NCBI GenBank assembly: GCA_039931265.1
Contig: JBDTSG010000147.1
Span: forward strand, 17,642 to 81,641
Direction of reading: 5' to 3'
Origin: Flavobacteriales bacterium
GTDB lineage: Bacteria; Bacteroidota; Bacteroidia; Flavobacteriales_F; PHOS-HE28
DNA: 64,000 bases
In this document: positions 3,937-55,398 of the stretch, piece by piece
Numbering within the stretch: position 1 is the first letter of the stretch
How the letters are laid out: each line of letters opens with the position of its first letter
Notes under the pieces: model-generated
Seen by the model: only the letters and a program-made list of their open reading frames with translations
What the model was told of the DNA's origin: nothing
Database searches by the model: none
Translations under genes and position numbers: made by a program

Positions 3937-4995
3937 ATGGAAAGGGTCGCGGTGGTCATCCTCAATTGGAACGGCAAGCAATGGCTTGAACGGTTCCTTC
4001 CCGATGTGCTGCAACGCAGTGCGGGTGCCCGCGTGATCGTAGCGGACAACGGTAGCACCGATACTTCGCTGGAATGGTTGGCGGCCCATGCACCGCACGC
4101 GAAGACCATCGCCATGCCGACGAACCAAGGGTTCGCTGGCGGCTACAACACGGCGCTGGAGCAAGTGGAGTCGGAGTTCTTCATTCTGTTGAACAGCGAT
4201 GTGGAAGTGACGACCGGTTGGGTGGACGGGCTCTTGCGCTACATGGACGCGCATCCGGAAATGGCCGCCTGCCAACCCAAGATGTTGAGCCACGCCCGTC
4301 GCGATCGTTTCGAACATGCCGGCGCGGCAGGGGGCTTCATCGATCGCAACGGTTATCCGTTCTGCCGCGGGCGCATCTTCGAACTCACCGAACAGGACAG
4401 GGGGCAGTACGACGATGATCGCGAAGTGTTCTGGGCCACGGGCGCCTGCCTCATGATCCGCAGTGCCGCGTTCCGCGAAGCGGGCGGCTTCGATGCTTCG
4501 CTGTTCGCGCACATGGAAGAGATCGATCTGTGCTGGCGACTGCGCCGCACCGGTTGGCGTATCGGCTACACCAGTTCCAGTAGCGTGTATCACGTGGGCG
4601 GCGGAGCTCTTGGTTACGGAAGTCCGCGCAAGACGTACCTCAACTTCCGCAACAGCTTGATCGTCCTTGCCAAGAACCTGCGATCACGTGCGCTGATCGT
4701 GCGCATCGTCCGTCGCTTCTTCTTGGACAACATGGCTGCGCTGAAATTCCTGTTGGAAGGGCACGCCAGCCATGCGTGGATGGTAGGGCGCGCACATCGC
4801 CACTTCTGCTATCGCCTACCCGCGATCCTACGTGAACGCCGACGGCTGAAGGCCTTGGAACACGATACTGACCTTACTGGCCAGTATTTGCGCAGCGTGG
4901 CCTATGATCGCTTCATCCTCGGGTGGAAGAAGTTCAGCGAGCTGGACAGGCACGCCTTCGGCCTCACCCTGCCCTCTCCAAAGGGGAGGGTCTGA
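3937..4995 (+). CDS. Glycosyltransferase family 2
   Basis: VVILNWNGKQWLERFLPDVL...VIVADNGSTDTS...QGFAGGYN are GT2 motifs. The last ~11 codons (GLTLPSPKGRV*) are read from a palindromic repeat element. Confidence 0.85.
   Translation: MERVAVVILNWNGKQWLERFLPDVLQRSAGARVIVADNGSTDTSLEWLAAHAPHAKTIAMPTNQGFAGGYNTALEQVESEFFILLNSDVEVTTGWVDGLLRYMDAHPEMAACQPKMLSHARRDRFEHAGAAGGFIDRNGYPFCRGRIFELTEQDRGQYDDDREVFWATGACLMIRSAAFREAGGFDASLFAHMEEIDLCWRLRRTGWRIGYTSSSSVYHVGGGALGYGSPRKTYLNFRNSLIVLAKNLRSRALIVRIVRRFFLDNMAALKFLLEGHASHAWMVGRAHRHFCYRLPAILRERRRLKALEHDTDLTGQYLRSVAYDRFILGWKKFSELDRHAFGLTLPSPKGRV
4960..4992. repeat. Small GC-rich palindromic (REP-like) element: GGCCTCACCCTGCCCTCTCC-AAA-GGGGAGGG
   Basis: Inverted repeat CCCTCTCC/GGGGAGGG with a CCTCACCCTG flank. 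The same family recurs at 8947..8979 and, inverted, at 9023..9059. It lies at the convergent junction of the GT2 gene and aroQ. Confidence 0.5.
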
Positions 4996-5013: not shown

Positions 5014-5442
5014 TCACTTGCTACCGATGCGCAACAGGTGATCGATGGCCAACCGATAGCCGTCAAGCCCGAGCCCGCTGATCACACCCTTGCTGACCGA
5101 ACCCGTAAGACTGTTGTGCCGGAACTCCTCGCGCGCGTGGATGTTGCTGATGTGCACTTCCACCACGGGAATGCTCAACGTGACCACCGTATCGCGCAGT
5201 GCTACGCTCGTGTGCGAGTAACCCGCTGCGTTCAACACAACGGCATCGAAGTGCTGCGGTGCCTGTTGAAGAGCTTCCACCAAGTCGCCCTCAATGTTCG
5301 ATTGCCGCAACTCGATGCTCGCCTGCGGAAATGCCTCGCGCAACTCAGGCAAGTAGCTATCGAAGGAAGTGCTGCCATAGATGTGCGGCTCGCGCGTGCC
5401 GAGCATGTTGAGGTTCGGACCGTTGAGGATGAGGATGCGCAT
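5014..5442 (-). CDS. aroQ: Type II 3-dehydroquinate dehydratase
   Basis: MRILILNGPNLNMLGTREPHIYG...HISNIHAREEFRH is a canonical type II DHQase. The ATG is at 5442; the upstream extension in the track is discarded. Confidence 0.9.
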   Translation of the reverse strand: MRILILNGPNLNMLGTREPHIYGSTSFDSYLPELREAFPQASIELRQSNIEGDLVEALQQAPQHFDAVVLNAAGYSHTSVALRDTVVTLSIPVVEVHISNIHAREEFRHNSLTGSVSKGVISGLGLDGYRLAIDHLLRIGSK

Positions 5443-8610: not shown

Positions 8611-10008
8611 ATGGGTTCCACGCGCACAGCCGCCTTCCACACCTTGGGCTGCAAGCTCAACTTCGCCGAGACCAGCACGCTGGCCCGCTCGCTGGAGGAG
8701 GCAGGCTATGCCCGTGTGAAAGTCGAGGAGCGGCCCGATGTGTTCGTGCTGAACACCTGCAGTGTGACGGAGAATGCGGACAAGGAATGCCGGCAATGGG
8801 TGCGTCGTTTCCAACGCATCAACCCGGAGGCGTTCATTGCAGTGGTGGGTTGCTACGCGCAGTTGAAGCCGCAGGAGATCGCAGCTATCCCCGGTGTTGG
8901 ACTGGTGCTCGGCGCGAACGAGAAGTTCGATCTGGCAGAATATCTACCTCAACCCCAACCCCTCTCCCAAGGAGAGGGGAACAGTATAGGGACAACCTAT
9001 GATCCCGATCAGCGCTTTATGACCCTCTCCATGGGAGAGGGCAGGGTGAGGGCGGCCCCCATCAAGGACCTCAAGCACTTCGTCCCTTCCTGGAACAGCG
9101 GCGACCGCACGCGGACCTTCTTGAAAGTGCAGGATGGATGCGACTACTTCTGCTCGTTCTGCACGATCCCCTTAGCACGCGGTCGAAGCCGTAGCGCAAC
9201 GATCGCCGAAACAGTGGCCATCGCTGAGGGCATTGCGGCCTCGGGTGTGAAGGAGATCGTTCTCACGGGTGTGAACACCGGCGATTTCGGCCGGGCACAT
9301 GGGGAGTCCTTCCTTGAACTGGCCCAAGCCTTGGACCATGTGGAGGGTATCGAGCGCTTCCGCATCAGCAGTATCGAACCCAACCTCTGTAGCGACGCGG
9401 TTATCGACTTCGTTGCCGGAAGCCGCCGTTTCATGCCGCATTTCCACATGCCGTTGCAGAGCGGTAGCGACGTGATCCTGGAGCGCATGCGCCGCCGGTA
9501 CGATACCACCCTCTATGCCGATCGCGTTGCGCACATCAAACGTGTCATGCCACATGCATGCATCGGTGTTGATGTGATCACCGGTACACCGGGCGAGACC
9601 GACGAGGAGTTCCTGAAGACGCGCGGCTTCCTGCGTTCAATACCCGTGGACTACTTGCATGCGTTCACATACAGCGAACGAGCCAACACAACCGCGGTGC
9701 GCATGGACGACGCCGTGCCAATGGAAACGAGGCGTGAGCGCACCAAGCAATTGCGCATTCTCAGCAGCAAACTTCAACGCGCCCACTACGAGAGGCATCT
9801 CGATACCGCACGGCCGGTGCTGCTTGAAGCGGAAGAAGTGGATGGCATGATGCGCGGTTATACGGACAACTACATCCGTGTCGAACTGCCTTACGATCCA
9901 ACGCTCGTGAACTCCGTCCGCCCTGCCGTGCTGCAACGGATCAACGGCAATGGCCTTATGGATGCAGCAATTGCGATCGATCAGTTGATCGATCAAATGA
10001 CCTCCTGA
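8611..10008 (+). CDS. mtaB: tRNA threonylcarbamoyladenosine methylthiotransferase (MtaB/YqeV-like radical SAM MTTase)
   Basis: AFHTLGCKLNFAETSTLARSLEEAGY...VLNTCSVTENADKECRQWVRRFQRINPEAFIAVVGCYAQLKPQEIAAIPGV is near-colinear with B. subtilis YqeV/MtaB; a CxxxCxxC radical-SAM motif (CSFCTIP) is present. An alternative in-frame ATG lies at 8581. Confidence 0.8.
   Translation: MGSTRTAAFHTLGCKLNFAETSTLARSLEEAGYARVKVEERPDVFVLNTCSVTENADKECRQWVRRFQRINPEAFIAVVGCYAQLKPQEIAAIPGVGLVLGANEKFDLAEYLPQPQPLSQGEGNSIGTTYDPDQRFMTLSMGEGRVRAAPIKDLKHFVPSWNSGDRTRTFLKVQDGCDYFCSFCTIPLARGRSRSATIAETVAIAEGIAASGVKEIVLTGVNTGDFGRAHGESFLELAQALDHVEGIERFRISSIEPNLCSDAVIDFVAGSRRFMPHFHMPLQSGSDVILERMRRRYDTTLYADRVAHIKRVMPHACIGVDVITGTPGETDEEFLKTRGFLRSIPVDYLHAFTYSERANTTAVRMDDAVPMETRRERTKQLRILSSKLQRAHYERHLDTARPVLLEAEEVDGMMRGYTDNYIRVELPYDPTLVNSVRPAVLQRINGNGLMDAAIAIDQLIDQMTS
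8947..8979. repeat. Palindromic REP-like element (CCTCAACCCCAACCCCTCTCC-CAA-GGAGAGGGG) embedded in frame in mtaB
   Basis: A perfect 9-bp stem CCCCTCTCC/GGAGAGGGG is translated as PQPQPLSQGEG. It belongs to the same family as 4960..4992. Confidence 0.5.
9023..9059. repeat. Palindromic REP-like element, inverted orientation (CCCTCTCC-ATG-GGAGAGGG-CAGGGTGAGGGCGGCC) embedded in frame in mtaB
   Basis: Its reverse complement GGCCGCCCTCACCCTGCCCTCTCC-CAT-GGAGAGGGTC matches the 4960..4992 copy almost base for base. It is translated as TLSMGEGRVRAAP. Confidence 0.5.
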
Positions 10009-14060: not shown

Positions 14061-14140
14061 GGCGCTAAGGAAAGAGGCGCAAGGTCGCGAAAGAAGAAGG
14101 CGGCCCATGGCCGCCTTCTCCGATGATCGGTTGAAGGCCT

Positions 14141-30717: not shown

Positions 30718-32703
30718 ATGGCCCGATCCCTTCGCCTTGTCCTCTTGCTGGCCGCCGCGCTCCGCTTGGCGCATGTTGCAGGCCAGGATGCGTCGCTTGT
30801 CCCCGATCTGATCGTGCAATTGTCGGGCGCCACCAATGACACTTTGCGCGCGGATGCATTGGCGCGCATCTGCTTCAATTTGATCCGCTCCAACCCAGAC
30901 AGCGCGCGACTTGTCGGTGACCAAGCAATGGCATTGGCTAAAAGGGTCAACAACAGGCGAGCGCTCGCCGACGCGCACAACAACCTCGGTTGGCTGGCAA
31001 CGGAGCAGGGACAATTCCCACGGGCGGACTCCTTGCTGAACACAGCTCTTGGGCTCTTCAAGAAGATCGGCAAGCCGGAATACACCTCGGTAGCACTTTC
31101 CAACCTCGGCTGGCTTGCGGAGAAGAAGGGCGACAGCGTGGGTTCCTTGAAACGCTTCCAAGAGGCATTGCGCGAAAGCGAAGCCGCGCACGATAGCGCA
31201 ACCACAGCGATCCTCCTCTACTCCTTGGGGGTGGGTTATCGCAAGATCAAGGAATACCCCAAAGCCCTGGATTACCTGCAGGGTGCGCTCGATATCGAGC
31301 GCACCATCGGCCGGAAGAGCAAAGAAGGCAACTGCCTTGTGGCGCTGGCCAATACCTACCGGGAACAAGGCGACACCTCGCAAGCCCTGATCAACTACAC
31401 GGAGGCCACGCGCATCTATCTCTTGAGGCAAGATCACGGCGGTGCGGGTCTGGTGCAGGAGAACATCGGCGACCTGTATGCCGATACCGACCCGCAGCGT
31501 GCGTTGGACCGCTACGCGATCGCATTCGCCCATTATGACTCCATCAATAGTGCTTCGGACAAGGCTTATGTGCTGAAGAGCATTGGTGCCGTGCAGACCA
31601 CGCTGCTGCACTTCGACGAAGCGGGTGAAAGTCTTACAACAGGACGGGCGTTGGCCATTGCAGTTGGGTCCAACGAACTGGTGATGGACTATGAACAAGC
31701 ATTGGCGCAGTTGGCGAGCGCCCAAGGCGATGCGATCGGCACCTTGCACCATTACGAACGCTACTTGGCGCTGAAGGACAGTCTGCAAGGAGCCGACACA
31801 CAGCGTGAACTCGCCCGTTTGCGAACGGAATTCGAAACGGAGCGCGCCGAAAAGGACAACGCGTTGCTACGGGCGGCGAACAACGAAAAAGCCGAACGTC
31901 TTCGGCGCAGGGACATACAACTGTACGGGAGCATTGCGCTCGGTGCGCTCGCAATGGTCGCTGCCGCCCTCTTCTGGCGCAACTACCGGCAAAAGCACAA
32001 GCACGCCGACGTGCTTGAAGGCTTGAACGAACAATTGGAGAACAGCAATGCGGAGATCACCGAGATCAATGGGCTGCTGGAAATGAAGGTGCTGCGCGGA
32101 CAGATGAACCCGCACTTCATTTACAACTGCTTGAACAGTGCGGCGCGGATGACCCAAGCAGGACACAGCACCGAGGCGTTGTTCTACCTCCAAGGCTTTG
32201 CACGGCTCCTGCGCATGGTGCTCGATCATAGCGTGAAGGACCGCATCACCATCACCGAAGAACTCGACTTCCTGCGGCAATACCTGAAGCTGGAAGCGTA
32301 CCGCCTGGATGGATTGAAGTATGAAGTGGATGCCGATCGCGCATTGCTCGACGATGACGTGGAACTGCCCGCGCTGATCGTGCAACCCTTCGTCGAGAAT
32401 GCCCTATGGCACGGGCTCGGCGGGAAACAAGGTGATAGGTCGGTATCGGTGCGTTTTGCGCAACAGAGCGGATCGTTGATCTGCACCATTACCGACAATG
32501 GCACCGGGCGCACCAAGTCCACCGCCGCACCCAAGGCGGATCCCCAGCACAAGTCGCTCGGTATGCAGCTAACGAACGAACGGTTACGACTGCTCGCGCG
32601 CCGGATCGGGCAGAACGGATCCTTCGTTGTCGAAGATCTGCAGGACGCCAGCGGTGCCGCCGTCGGGACCCGCGTAACGCTGCAACTGCCCATGGAACCT
32701 TGA
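30718..32703 (+). CDS. Sensor histidine kinase, TPR repeats + LytS/YehU-type His_kinase + HATPase
   Basis: N-terminal TPR repeats, a TM segment, then MNPHFIYNCLNSAARM (His_kinase family signature) and a GHKL ATPase domain. Confidence 0.8.
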   Translation: MARSLRLVLLLAAALRLAHVAGQDASLVPDLIVQLSGATNDTLRADALARICFNLIRSNPDSARLVGDQAMALAKRVNNRRALADAHNNLGWLATEQGQFPRADSLLNTALGLFKKIGKPEYTSVALSNLGWLAEKKGDSVGSLKRFQEALRESEAAHDSATTAILLYSLGVGYRKIKEYPKALDYLQGALDIERTIGRKSKEGNCLVALANTYREQGDTSQALINYTEATRIYLLRQDHGGAGLVQENIGDLYADTDPQRALDRYAIAFAHYDSINSASDKAYVLKSIGAVQTTLLHFDEAGESLTTGRALAIAVGSNELVMDYEQALAQLASAQGDAIGTLHHYERYLALKDSLQGADTQRELARLRTEFETERAEKDNALLRAANNEKAERLRRRDIQLYGSIALGALAMVAAALFWRNYRQKHKHADVLEGLNEQLENSNAEITEINGLLEMKVLRGQMNPHFIYNCLNSAARMTQAGHSTEALFYLQGFARLLRMVLDHSVKDRITITEELDFLRQYLKLEAYRLDGLKYEVDADRALLDDDVELPALIVQPFVENALWHGLGGKQGDRSVSVRFAQQSGSLICTITDNGTGRTKSTAAPKADPQHKSLGMQLTNERLRLLARRIGQNGSFVVEDLQDASGAAVGTRVTLQLPMEP

Positions 32704-55366: not shown

Positions 55367-55398
55367 GAAAGGCCCGACATCGGGCCTTTCTGCTTTTG
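55367..55398 (+). terminator. Rho-independent terminator
   Basis: GAAAGGCCCG-ACAT-CGGGCCTTTC stem-loop followed by TGCTTTTG, 18 nt after the stop at 55349. Confidence 0.6.

Follow-up and report, generated by a model that had tools for sequence, protein, structure and literature searches.

The closest described systems are the BoxC/PIT/TM "intrastrand triplex motif" repeats of E. coli and other bacteria (Hoyne & Maher 2000, 2002; Holder et al. 2015, PMC4666352). The published TM pattern, CCCTCNCCC-N3-6-GGGNGAGGG-N3-GGGNGAGGG (Holder et al. 2015, PMC4666352), is reported in its exact form from Proteobacteria. In E. coli K-12, TM copies are always intergenic; E. coli pairs always join subtypes A and B, palindromic pairs are partly deleted, and small local changes affect TM loci in 39% of comparisons versus <1% for controls (PMC4666352). 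The stable triplex form is assigned to the G-rich strand, the C-rich form requiring acid pH, while PIT elements in E. coli showed no promoter, terminator or other in vivo activity and the E. coli members of the family have no link to transposases (PMC4666352). Repeats of other kinds are known from within genes. Rickettsia palindromic elements (RPEs) are palindromic repeats carried in frame in functional genes (Ogata et al. 2000, summarized in PMC10969869 and PMC3733652), and more than half of the intragenic inserts of GTAG/CGTC REPs are dimers encoding 20 to 30 aa (Di Nocera et al. 2013, PMC3733652). Intragenic REPs include some in tRNA modification genes, and in two Xanthomonas species roughly the same recB site is taken up by different REPs (PMC3733652).

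The 64,000-nucleotide stretch of DNA analyzed here (the window) carries three BoxC/PIT/TM units, two of them as a pair inside a gene for a tRNA-modifying enzyme, mtaB. We consider it highly probable that this 105-bp element is an inverted pair of BoxC/PIT/TM repeats that was inserted into a tolerant linker of mtaB and was then unstable there. Elements of this kind are already known, and it is the in-frame location and the behavior at recurrent sites that are unusual. The features concerned are:

8611 to 10008, + strand: mtaB coding sequence, the host gene (465 aa; tRNA ms2t6A37 methylthiotransferase), an open reading frame with start and stop checked.
8947 to 9051, no strand assigned: the whole element as read from the sequence, an inverted, tails-outward pair of BoxC/PIT/TM units with their spacer, 105 bp.
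8947 to 8979, - strand: left unit, with Y CCCCTCTCC (8979 to 8971), loop TTG, R GGAGAGGGG (8967 to 8959), loop 2 TTG and third block GGGTTGAGG (8955 to 8947).
8959 to 8979: hairpin 1, CCCCTCTCC-CAA-GGAGAGGGG, with CCTCAACCC-CAA directly before it at 8947 to 8958.
8980 to 9022, no strand assigned: 43-nt spacer between the two units, read from the sequence.
9023 to 9052, + strand: right unit, with Y CCCTCTCC (9023 to 9030), loop ATG, R GGAGAGGG (9034 to 9041), loop 2 CA and third block GGGTGAGGG (9044 to 9052).
9023 to 9041: hairpin 2, CCCTCTCC-ATG-GGAGAGGG, followed by CA-GGGTGAGGG at 9042 to 9052.
4960 to 4992, - strand: third, single unit, GGCCTCACCCTGCCCTCTCCAAAGGGGAGGGTC, 33 nt, lying after the last sense codon of a glycosyltransferase gene and directly before its TGA.
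3937 to 4995, + strand: glycosyltransferase-family-2-like open reading frame, its C terminus extended by the third unit (syntenic genes in relatives L083, L085 and L086 carry PF00535).
5014 to 5442, - strand: aroQ-like (type II dehydroquinase) gene, convergent with the glycosyltransferase gene (PF01220 in syntenic loci).

The host lineage is an uncultured, high-GC member of the Flavobacteriales. Its mtaB product scores 383.4 bits against TIGR01579, passing the equivalog cutoff of 357.05, contains both the PF00919 (UPF0004) and PF04055 (Radical_SAM) domains, and is 100% identical to an NCBI protein named MtaB (MAG Flavobacteri...). B. subtilis can do without MtaB/YqeV, and the description of mtaB as an "essential-type gene" in an earlier, sequence-only reading of this DNA was therefore overstated. 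The element sits in the linker that joins the MTTase N-terminal domain to the radical-SAM core. In an AlphaFold model of the protein (mean pLDDT, 67.9), which is usable solely for saying that the insert region is of low confidence, pLDDT is <50 over residues 103 to 163, and in a HMMER alignment to MiaB (7MJV) the insert segment falls in a gapped, low-confidence stretch. The linker around the element is flexible and under low constraint. Anchor residues on its two sides are 84 aa apart, compared to a constant 61 to 62 aa in ~58 more distant Flavobacteriales; this excess of 22 to 23 aa agrees with the earlier estimate of a linker ~21 aa longer than that of B. subtilis YqeV.

The element occupies exactly 35 codons of mtaB, P113 to R147, with the translation PQPQPLSQGEGNSIGTTYDPDQRFMTLSMGEGRVR, and the intact frame suggests that the insert is translated as 35 extra residues. 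Two inverted, GC-rich hairpin copies around a 43-bp spacer, all within the MtaB frame, had been described from the sequence alone, and the sequence is as described; the start at 8947 was also right, but the extent of 8947 to 9059 and ~38 aa was too long, as positions 9053 to 9059 are ordinary flank outside the element. The left copy is a true reverse complement of a unit, tail included, pairs at 9/9 Watson-Crick positions, and hardly differs from the consensus derived without bias for the family, CCTC(A/T)CCCC-NAA-CCCCTCTCC-NAA-GGAGAGGGG-AAC. The spacer has a GC content of 0.44 versus 0.59 in the remainder of mtaB. Reading frames are open through the entire element only in +0 and -0, and a single unit is stop-free in five of six frames. 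The window has three instances of the hairpin pattern with up to one mismatch, where shuffles predict 0.00, and two of the arm-plus-tail pattern, where 0.03 are expected. In the predicted mRNA fold, the left and right units pair with each other as one long imperfect hairpin (-56.6 kcal/mol; z = -4.0), and none of 200 shuffles folds as well as the 105-bp element. The two local hairpins alone reach only -32.5 kcal/mol. The earlier expectation of RNA folding thus held up, with a single left-right hairpin predicted in place of the weaker local pair.

Membership in the family was tested with the rule Y-loop-R-loop-R', in which Y and R pair by Watson-Crick rules, R' lies antiparallel to R, stems are at least 8 in length, and the only triads allowed in the purine motif are G.G-C, A.A-T and T.A-T. 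All three window units follow this rule, with 9/9 allowed triads in the right unit, 8/9 in the left and 8/8 in the third, which has one Watson-Crick mismatch. In the right unit, R (GGGAGAGGG) and the third block (GGGTGAGGG) are both identical to those of E. coli TMECO #1 (PMC4666352), and Y (CCCTCTCC(A)) agrees with the published block at 8/9 positions. Loop 1, at 3 nt, is within the published N3-6. Loop 2 has the published length of 3 nt only in the left unit; in the right and third units it is 2 nt (CA), and because of the 2-nt loop the window units are a close variant of the TMECO regular expression without matching it exactly. The linker between tail and hairpin ranges from 2 to 5 nt in a set of viral contigs. 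Covariation links the third block to the purine block: of 158 variant hairpin strands, 35 are perfect, whereas permutations gave a mean of 3.1 and a maximum of 9, and the unit of L085 shows a compensatory, even three-way, change. As a non-circular three-block covariation, this may be taken as indirect evidence of constraint on the third strand. Direct BLAST against E. coli genomes returned only two weak matches of 32 to 35 nt, without annotation, and no Rfam family matched the element at or above its gathering threshold. The nearest, whalefall-1, was set aside at 19.7 bits (threshold, 37) since it lies far under threshold and was not reproduced on canonical copies; matches of canonical copies to miRNA-precursor models are those of generic long hairpins. 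A pyrimidine-motif triplex on the C-rich strand was dropped because most tails have a central A and the stable form is that of the G-rich strand (PMC4666352). An intrinsic terminator was likewise rejected, with a T-run after only 14 of 134 units and no terminator activity in the literature.

Like E. coli BoxC/PIT/TMECO, the window units have a three-block design with nearly identical blocks (CCCTCTCC/GGGAGAGGG/GGGTGAGGG) and triads that are all allowed in the purine motif. They also belong to a dispersed, apparently multicopy and mostly extragenic set, in which inverted pairs mix two loop-2 subtypes (TTG with CA in the window, TT with CA in 12 of 15 metagenomic pairs), and their host locus is unusually variable among relatives, as E. 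coli loci are. In contrast to the always intergenic copies of E. coli, none of the three window units is clear of coding sequence: two lie inside a conserved enzyme gene and are read in frame, and one forms a C-terminal extension. Their loops are shorter (loop 2 of 2 nt on the right unit; loop 1 of 3 nt), and their host is an uncultured Flavobacteriales, compared to Proteobacteria for the published exact pattern. Tails point outward in the window and metagenomic pairs but in just one of five E. coli pairs, as we read the coordinates of Table 1 in PMC4666352. The window family is also found on IMG/VR viral contigs, whereas no connection to phages was observed for the E. coli elements.

Other families share fewer traits with the element. 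Like RPEs, as these are summarized, it is a palindromic repeat that is in frame, tolerated at a surface or linker position and adds tens of residues. RPEs, however, are ~150 bp long, have a conserved peptide and no third block, are CGTC-tagged (RPE-4/6) and come from an obligate intracellular alphaproteobacterium; the window unit is found in three reading frames, with differing peptides, and lacks the CGTC tag, the only sequence feature compared with RPEs. With intragenic REPs it shares a dimeric insert in a tRNA modification gene, and a CGTC-type REP is present in this very linker in sister lineages, but the consensus of 131 to 134 oriented units shows the tail CCTC(A/T)CCC, a third block in place of the tetranucleotide head, and neither GTAG nor CGTC. 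REPINs (Bertels & Rainey) are likewise inverted doublets of ~100 bp that form a long hairpin and are reported to persist vertically at orthologous sites; unlike them, the window family has no GTAG head, spacers that are not conserved between genomes, and no RAYT found in a crude screen of the window and unit-bearing loci. Bacterial MITEs such as Correia and ERIC (PMC10969869) are also short and non-coding with inverted ends, and can fuse in frame with host open reading frames. The inverted ends of the present element, however, are complete units that stand alone and also occur singly, no related autonomous IS is known, and the target-site duplication expected of a MITE was not seen. The label "REP-like" or MITE initially attached to the element is consequently replaced by BoxC/PIT/TM, since the GTAG/CGTC head and a target-site duplication are lacking and no transposase is known for it.

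The third unit shows what is inserted. It lengthens the C terminus of the glycosyltransferase by 11 residues, GLTLPSPKGRV, whereas in three relatives (L083, L085 and L086) the protein ends ...AF* without it, giving a clean filled/empty contrast of 33 nt. No target-site duplication was seen at this stop codon beyond, at most, an ambiguous TC dinucleotide. In the window lineage, a single unit goes in as a discrete module of ~33 nt, and the insertion at the stop codon delimits the mobile module.

Outside the window, the exact unit is present on five viral contigs, and in the viral set 131 of 157 hairpins have a one-sided tail, with up to five hairpins in one locus. A tails-outward pair of the same architecture occurs on 15 metagenomic contigs at lengths of 94 to 113 bp, with no target-site duplication at any of these 15 pairs nor in the window. 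Units are depleted from open reading frames (5 to 14%, versus 25 to 61% for random positions). The window units belong canonically to a family that is dispersed, lies mostly outside genes and is represented in many unrelated genomes. That the repeat is dispersed, with further copies in the window and elsewhere, bears out the sequence-only reading, but the genomes of the clade are not repeat-rich: six of seven strict matches in 1.32 Mb of examined DNA fall inside the mtaB linker. In 444 kb of clade DNA the window unit is the sole recurrent GC hairpin, and all six perfect copies lie in the mtaB linker; the 64-kb window has its three units, and only two copies outside mtaB were found in ~450 kb of the clade. 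One relative has a copy in kdpA, where the locus ends inside the unit and kdpA homologues are mostly fragments, so that an in-frame insertion there is only suggested. Given how rare the unit is in clade genomes, simple random insertion plus tolerance does not readily account for a target of 50 bp that has been occupied again and again. Sites at which the repeats recur are the interdomain linker of MtaB (more than two-thirds of the clade), an ABC-ATPase/permease junction and the ilvB/ilvN junction. Pairs of the family persist at orthologous intercistronic sites, where their spacers drift roughly neutrally.

Comparison of the 120 closest MtaB proteins showed a short, baseline linker in 38 and an expanded one in 82. 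The expanded linkers contain TM units in all three frames, a CGTC-type REP (type-2 hairpin, in sister lineages), or other hairpins or pairs; the occupants are unrelated in sequence and 24 to 65 aa long. Linkers may be empty, hold a single unit, a pair or a triple, or contain another repeat instead, and the same DNA unit in three frames gives different peptides while its nucleotides are conserved. Between L084 (empty) and L085 (filled), 4-fold sites are 0.76 identical, yet the linkers have no homology. The right-hand unit is common to L082, L081, L001 and L083 at the same codons, as a single unit in L082, L001 and L083 and as part of the whole pair, in frame, in L081, an independent assembly from another sample. 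Relative to L081, the right unit matches at 30 of 31 positions and the spacer at 28 of 43 (65%, ungapped), compared to an identity of 0.49 at the 4-fold sites of these genes. Such sites are saturated among the compared mtaB genes (identity, 0.42 to 0.51), and the units are nearly identical. In the tree, the window adjoins a single-unit relative and the other pair-bearing gene (P0003) falls in a sister clade; this neighbor-joining tree conflicts with the linker states, and its 4-fold sites are saturated. A pair may have been reduced to a single unit, a single unit may have become a pair, or recombination may have taken place. The mtaB linker is a recurrent sink for several kinds of repeat in this group of Flavobacteriales. 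Alignment of orthologs, the check proposed earlier, thus finds the segment absent in 38 of the 120 closest MtaBs and differently filled in others, and upholds the view that the element is not an old part of the protein, with relatives' sites empty or differently filled and units in three frames. The proposal that it landed without breaking the frame is right as to the in-frame linker site, but the shared unit or pair in L082, L081, L001 and L083 speaks against a single private landing.

Several other explanations could be offered for this pattern. The structure might be a selected, cis-acting part of mtaB, either a DNA structure that acts locally or an mRNA hairpin that makes the ribosome pause as it passes from the Fe-S N-terminal domain to the radical-SAM core. 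The strong enrichment at this site, in both the 1.32-Mb and the 444-kb samples, would fit such a role, as would some hairpin-derived expansion in 82 of 120 close homologues, unit nucleotides that are conserved though frames differ and 4-fold sites are saturated, the compensatory change in L085, and the persistence of same-family pairs at intercistronic sites whose spacers drift. We nevertheless judge it decidedly improbable, since 38 of 120 close and ~58 more distant homologues have no insert, the occupants are unrelated and of very different lengths, the unit also lies in unrelated contexts, and PIT elements showed no in vivo activity in E. coli (PMC4666352). Vertical inheritance of an ancient MtaB segment conserved as a peptide would account for the related peptides that relatives have at the same place, but it is hardly compatible with a widespread baseline linker or with conserved nucleotides read in three frames as differing peptides; an error in assembly of the MAG is countered by the same in-frame pair in the independent assembly L081. 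Ancient peptide or artifact, we give this reading almost no credence.

The remaining alternatives concern how the pair arose. A classical REP/REPIN doublet mobilized by a RAYT (Y1 HUH transposase) would also be an inverted, mostly extragenic doublet of ~100 bp with a long hairpin and no visible target-site duplication. It would be long-lived at orthologous sites, as is reported for REPINs, and a genuine CGTC-tagged REP does occupy the same linker in sister lineages. Against it, 131 oriented units lack a GTAG or CGTC head, their conserved flank being the third (triplex) block, and E. coli members of the family are without a transposase link (PMC4666352). No HUH/Y1 (RAYT/IS200-like) gene was found in the window or in unit-bearing loci; the motif screen was crude and, with single-copy genes to be sought in mere fragments of genomes, uninformative. 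A RAYT-mobilized origin is in our view very unlikely. Local manufacture of the pair, in which a prior single unit underwent template switching or inverted duplication with no imported repeat DNA, could explain why the left unit is the precise reverse complement of an L082-type single unit, loop (CAA/TTG) and tail included, and why the closest relative has a single unit only. We find it less credible still, given that single-unit relatives contain nothing corresponding to the 43-nt spacer (GC, 0.44), that the same tails-outward pair with TT/CA end asymmetry lies on 15 unrelated contigs, and that L081 shares the whole pair.

Under the preferred explanation, an inserted and subsequently unstable BoxC/PIT/TM pair, each unit of ~30 nt, with its pyrimidine block, complementary purine block and G-rich third block, would form a hairpin. 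As single-stranded DNA, this hairpin could take up the third block as a purine-motif intrastrand triplex, and the two units together may form a long hairpin or cruciform of ~30 bp. We infer that repeats enter by a process that is independent of transposases or not yet identified. Their survival would be due to a linker that tolerates extra residues and to a unit that is stop-free in five of six frames. The structure-prone DNA would in turn make the site unstable through slippage or repair, and this instability could be the source of the indels, changes of frame, reductions from pair to single unit and replacements that relatives show. The mRNA would form only the hairpin or hairpins, at which the ribosome might, for example, pause between the two domains. 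We also entertain, as an unlikely extension, that the repeats are selected for triplex or hairpin formation in vivo, or targeted to certain DNA contexts, and are not tolerated junk. The three-way covariation of blocks, near-perfect conservation where neutral sites are saturated, and recurrence at few orthologous sites might point in this direction.

BoxC/PIT/TM repeats can thus reside inside a conserved enzyme gene and be read through in any of three frames, and one interdomain linker can serve as a long-term sink for both BoxC/PIT/TM repeats and REPs. For annotation, this means that "PLSLGEGxGVR"-type stretches in proteins are translated repeats. Because the mtaB linker is flanked by conserved coding sequence, it offers exact junctions and a clock in the form of 4-fold sites, and its many independent states make insertion, decay and structure-induced instability measurable by comparative genomics. 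If the repeats are indeed selected or targeted, site-specific insertion or retention of BoxC/PIT elements would have a natural reporter in the mtaB linker, one that codes for protein.

Within the MtaB linker, between the MTTase N-terminal domain and the radical-SAM core, the element is an inverted pair of ~30-nt units, each with a pyrimidine block, loop 1, a purine block, loop 2 and a G-rich third block (the tail). A third unit stands alone elsewhere in the window.

8611-10008: mtaB coding sequence (TIGR01579: 383 bits; cutoff 357)
8947-8979: left unit, CCTCAACCC-CAA-CCCCTCTCC-CAA-GGAGAGGGG, by sequence inspection
between the units: spacer, 43 nt
9023-9052: right unit, CCCTCTCC-ATG-GGAGAGGG-CA-GGGTGAGGG, by sequence inspection
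4960-4992, minus strand: third unit, placed after the final sense codon of a glycosyltransferase gene and ahead of its TGA

The element proper (8947-9051) corresponds exactly to codons P113-R147 of mtaB, whose product matches, with 100% identity, a protein that NCBI lists for a Flavobacteriales bacterium MAG. The repeats are exactly as the sequence-only reading described them: the hairpin pattern (≤1 mismatch) has three matches across the 64 kb of the window where 0.00 are expected, and the arm-plus-tail pattern two where 0.03 are expected. Loop and tail included, the left unit is the reverse complement of the unit type in the closest relative, L082 (L numbers denote fetched loci and P numbers MtaB homologues), and the two units therefore form a genuine inverted pair with tails outward. 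The RNA folding that had been anticipated is predicted as one long imperfect hairpin in which the left unit pairs with the right (-56.6 kcal/mol; z = -4.0; 0 of 200 shuffles equally good), with the two local hairpins by themselves at -32.5 kcal/mol; folded as DNA, the element has z = -3.65. In the AlphaFold model of MtaB, pLDDT is <50 across residues 103-163, and the HMMER alignment to MiaB 7MJV is gapped and low-confidence in the linker. No Rfam family fits the units; the right unit (9021-9053) has a weak hit to whalefall-1 RNA at 19.7 bits, below the gathering score of 37, and canonical copies do not repeat it.

Searching the literature for the arm sequences pointed to Holder et al. 2015 (PMC4666352), and by sequence the unit belongs to the G/C-rich intrastrand triplex motif described there, named first BoxC, then PIT (Hoyne and Maher) and then TM/TMECO. 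The right unit has the same purine and third blocks as TMECO #1 and allowed triads at 9/9 positions, the left unit at 8/9 and the third unit at 8/8 with one Watson-Crick mismatch. Its loops are shorter (loop 2 is 2 nt) than in the published TMECO pattern, CCCTCNCCC-N3-6-GGGNGAGGG-N3-GGGNGAGGG (PMC4666352), which makes it a close variant. That a palindromic repeat lies in frame at P113-R147 stands, and the name REP does not: a classical REP was rejected because the unit has neither a GTAG nor a CGTC head. TM has 3,610 copies in 262 proteobacterial genomes; all 23 in E. coli K-12 are intergenic, and five loci there are inverted pairs, always combining two subtypes (PMC4666352). In vitro, the G-rich strand adopts a stable purine-motif triplex, not demonstrated in vivo, and RNA does not form such triplexes; PIT elements lack promoter and terminator activity and are a block to DNA polymerase in vitro (PMC4666352). 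Compared with control loci, TM loci show far more strain variation, including small deletions and pairs that are partly lost, and the E. coli study found no link to phages, plasmids or transposons (PMC4666352).

In one relative (L085 10353-10383), a canonical T-A.A triad is changed to C-G.G, with all three blocks altered together. Across all fetched loci (~340), we picked out variant pyrimidine/purine hairpins on Watson-Crick pairing alone, which keeps the test non-circular, and asked whether the downstream block fits the triad rule for its own hairpin's purine block. Perfect fits were found on 35 of 158 strands (e.g., GGGGAGGG with GGGTGGGG and GGAGAAGG with GGATGAGG), against a mean of 3.1 and a maximum of 9 in 1,000 permutations of purine blocks among variant classes, and 3 in a composition control. 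This excess gives indirect support to a third block constrained jointly with the hairpin across variant families.

Measured between the conserved anchors G.NEKF and GCDYFCSFC, the linker spans 61-62 residues in ~58 Flavobacteriales of other families and is expanded only in the high-GC clade nearest the window (62-84 residues; 84 in the window). The segment is absent from some orthologs: 38 of the 120 closest MtaB cluster representatives keep a baseline linker and 82 are expanded (24-65 residues). Judged by peptide signature, ~27 of the expanded linkers carry window-type units, ~19 a second type of hairpin ('CHAGLDPAS') and ~24 a third, with 12 left unclassified. On a linker-free tree, four nearly identical genes have four different linker states, including an ancestral-looking empty one (P0018). 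Their DNA has common sharp boundaries, GGGCACAT(C/T)G and ATCAAGGACGTC, around cassettes of 50-71 nt that are unrelated to one another; at four-fold degenerate sites, an empty locus (L084) and a filled one (L085) have 76% identity. The reading frame of the unit also varies among relatives (PLSLGEGTGVR in L082, SSPLERGTRGEA in L086, and others), so what recurs is the nucleotide sequence and not the peptide. By these alignments the element is an insert and no ancient portion of MtaB, in keeping with the sequence-only reading. One linker (P0035, ...HTPLHTRGGLQGAHSPLPTGDGLQGAHSHLPAGEGRGGVHYSP) apparently has three tandem unit-derived segments.

The framing of a single landing in an essential gene did not hold up. 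L082, 88% identical in amino acids outside the linker, carries a single unit at the codons that hold the right unit in the window; decayed single units are there in L001 and L083, and L081 has the whole pair plus an extra 24 nt. Relative to these genes, the window's mtaB is essentially saturated at four-fold sites (identity 0.42-0.51), yet its right unit agrees with that of L081 in 30 of 31 positions, and the 43-nt spacers, ungapped, agree in 28 of 43, which most simply suggests a pair already present in the ancestor that the window shares with L081. Since then the units have been retained or renewed to a degree well above what neutral drift would give. A neighbor-joining tree places the window beside single-unit L082.

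The second linker type, with consensus CGTC-ATCCCGGA-CTTG-ATCCGGGAT, is by sequence a CGTC-tagged REP as defined by Di Nocera et al. 2013. In sister-lineage linkers it reads ATGCCGGG-CTTGA-CCCGGCAT, peptide CHAGLDPAS (L087 2149-2173, L008, P0006-9, P0015, P0025, P0086, P0087, P0093 and others), and its family (consensus CGTCATCCCGGACTTGATCCGGGATCCAG) is present on 119 viral contigs. P0043, P0016, P0068 and P0014 have seemingly in-frame inverted pairs of it (...SGLEPGS...RVKPGVT...). The third type, GACCGGC...GCCGGTCATCGCG, peptide DRRLSSAEAGHRE (L002, L005, L012, L020; ~24/120 homologues), has its 3' half CCCGGCATCGCG in common with the second, in another frame, and may be a rearranged derivative of it. 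At a second sub-site, directly 5' of RTRTFLKVQDGC, CCCGCC...GGCGGG-type hairpins (L004, L007, L012, L014, L015, L017) encode ~10 extra residues (DPASGDPSAGQ-like) in 5/120 homologues.

Further copies of the motif were found, as anticipated, as the third unit, an apparent copy in kdpA, and on viral and metagenomic contigs. The third unit lengthens the glycosyltransferase by 11 residues, GLTLPSPKGRV; in L083, L085 and L086 the protein ends ...AF* and the unit is absent. This filled/empty contrast delimits a discrete 33-nt module, GGCCTCACCCTGCCCTCTCCAAAGGGGAGGGTC, and shows insertion of single units in the window's lineage. The kdpA copy, apparently in frame (...KAMAPGAGAHCSPLLGR...), lies at L086 21335-21353 in a related closed genome (CP064979.1) and is only partly seen, the fetched locus stopping within the unit; homologues read ...KAMxxxTTxxLGNFW... 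at that point, and the gene call is a 583-aa product. In relatives, the glycosyltransferase/aroQ spacer (L085 1482-1528, L086 9409-9474) is built of CCATGTG(R)CCATG(K)G repeats in a tandem-like array; these are unrelated to the unit, as are other perfect GC-rich hairpins of the window with 10-11-bp stems (14095-14119, 31282-31305, 55367-55390; e.g., AGAAGGCGGCC-CAT-GGCCGCCTTCT), which may be terminators.

On viral contigs of 40-45% GC, the exact unit forms GC-rich islands between genes. With a bare-hairpin query, 131 of 157 matches had the tail on exactly one side, and the consensus, CCTC(A/T)CCCC-NAA-CCCCTCTCC-NAA-GGAGAGGGG, is practically the window's left unit. Units are depleted within long ORFs (5-14% vs 25-61% for random positions). 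The IMG/VR contigs (L088-L092, L227 onward), viral by classification, commonly carry the family (≤5 hairpins per locus) and may include misclassified chromosomal fragments or prophage flanks. Strict tails-outward pairs occur on 15 metagenomic contigs (94-113 bp, spacers AT-rich and non-conserved), 12 of them with the window's loop-2 end asymmetry (TT vs CA). Several pairs occupy matching intercistronic positions in related genomes, either 12-20 bp downstream of an ABC-ATPase gene or between ilvB-/ilvN-like genes.

L095 7251-7360, L096 1109-1221, L098 1011-1116, L105 1644-1748: recurrent intercistronic pairs
L100 1252-1347, L102 2262-2355, L107 11195-11290: recurrent intercistronic pairs, further group

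In these pairs the spacers diverge at roughly the rate of four-fold sites and the units are perfect, a conservation biased by a search that demanded perfect units.

Direct support covers a known repeat family, discrete unit insertion, a linker freely varying in length, an intact frame and a strong predicted hairpin. The 35 element residues would be translated and tolerated in the MtaB linker, and with no stop codon in five of the unit's six frames, in-frame survival would be easy. Structure-prone DNA would also destabilize the linker site, in line with the findings on TM loci of E. coli, and this would account for the cassette-like turnover, frame changes and pair/single differences. Simple random insertion plus tolerance does not fit how rare the unit is: across 444 kb of DNA from the clade, it is the only recurrent GC hairpin, and 6/6 perfect copies lie in the mtaB linker. 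Candidate explanations are targeting of the linker, retention of repeats in it against loss from other places, and recombination that moves linker alleles. A crude motif screen of the window and unit-bearing loci found no Y1/HUH transposases, and no target-site duplications were seen at the 15 metagenomic pairs, the window or the glycosyltransferase stop.

In-frame palindromic repeats are already known, as is the BoxC/PIT/TM family itself. Rickettsia RPEs are likewise in frame, as are intragenic REP dimers (20-30 aa; Di Nocera et al. 2013, PMC3733652), some of which lie in tRNA-modification genes and some at one recB site in two species (PMC3733652). What is new is a BoxC/PIT/TM-type pair read through within a conserved enzyme, of which we found no report in the searchable literature. 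Also new, as judged from the compared sequences, is that one linker serves as a recurrent sink for BoxC/PIT/TM motifs and REPs across a whole clade.
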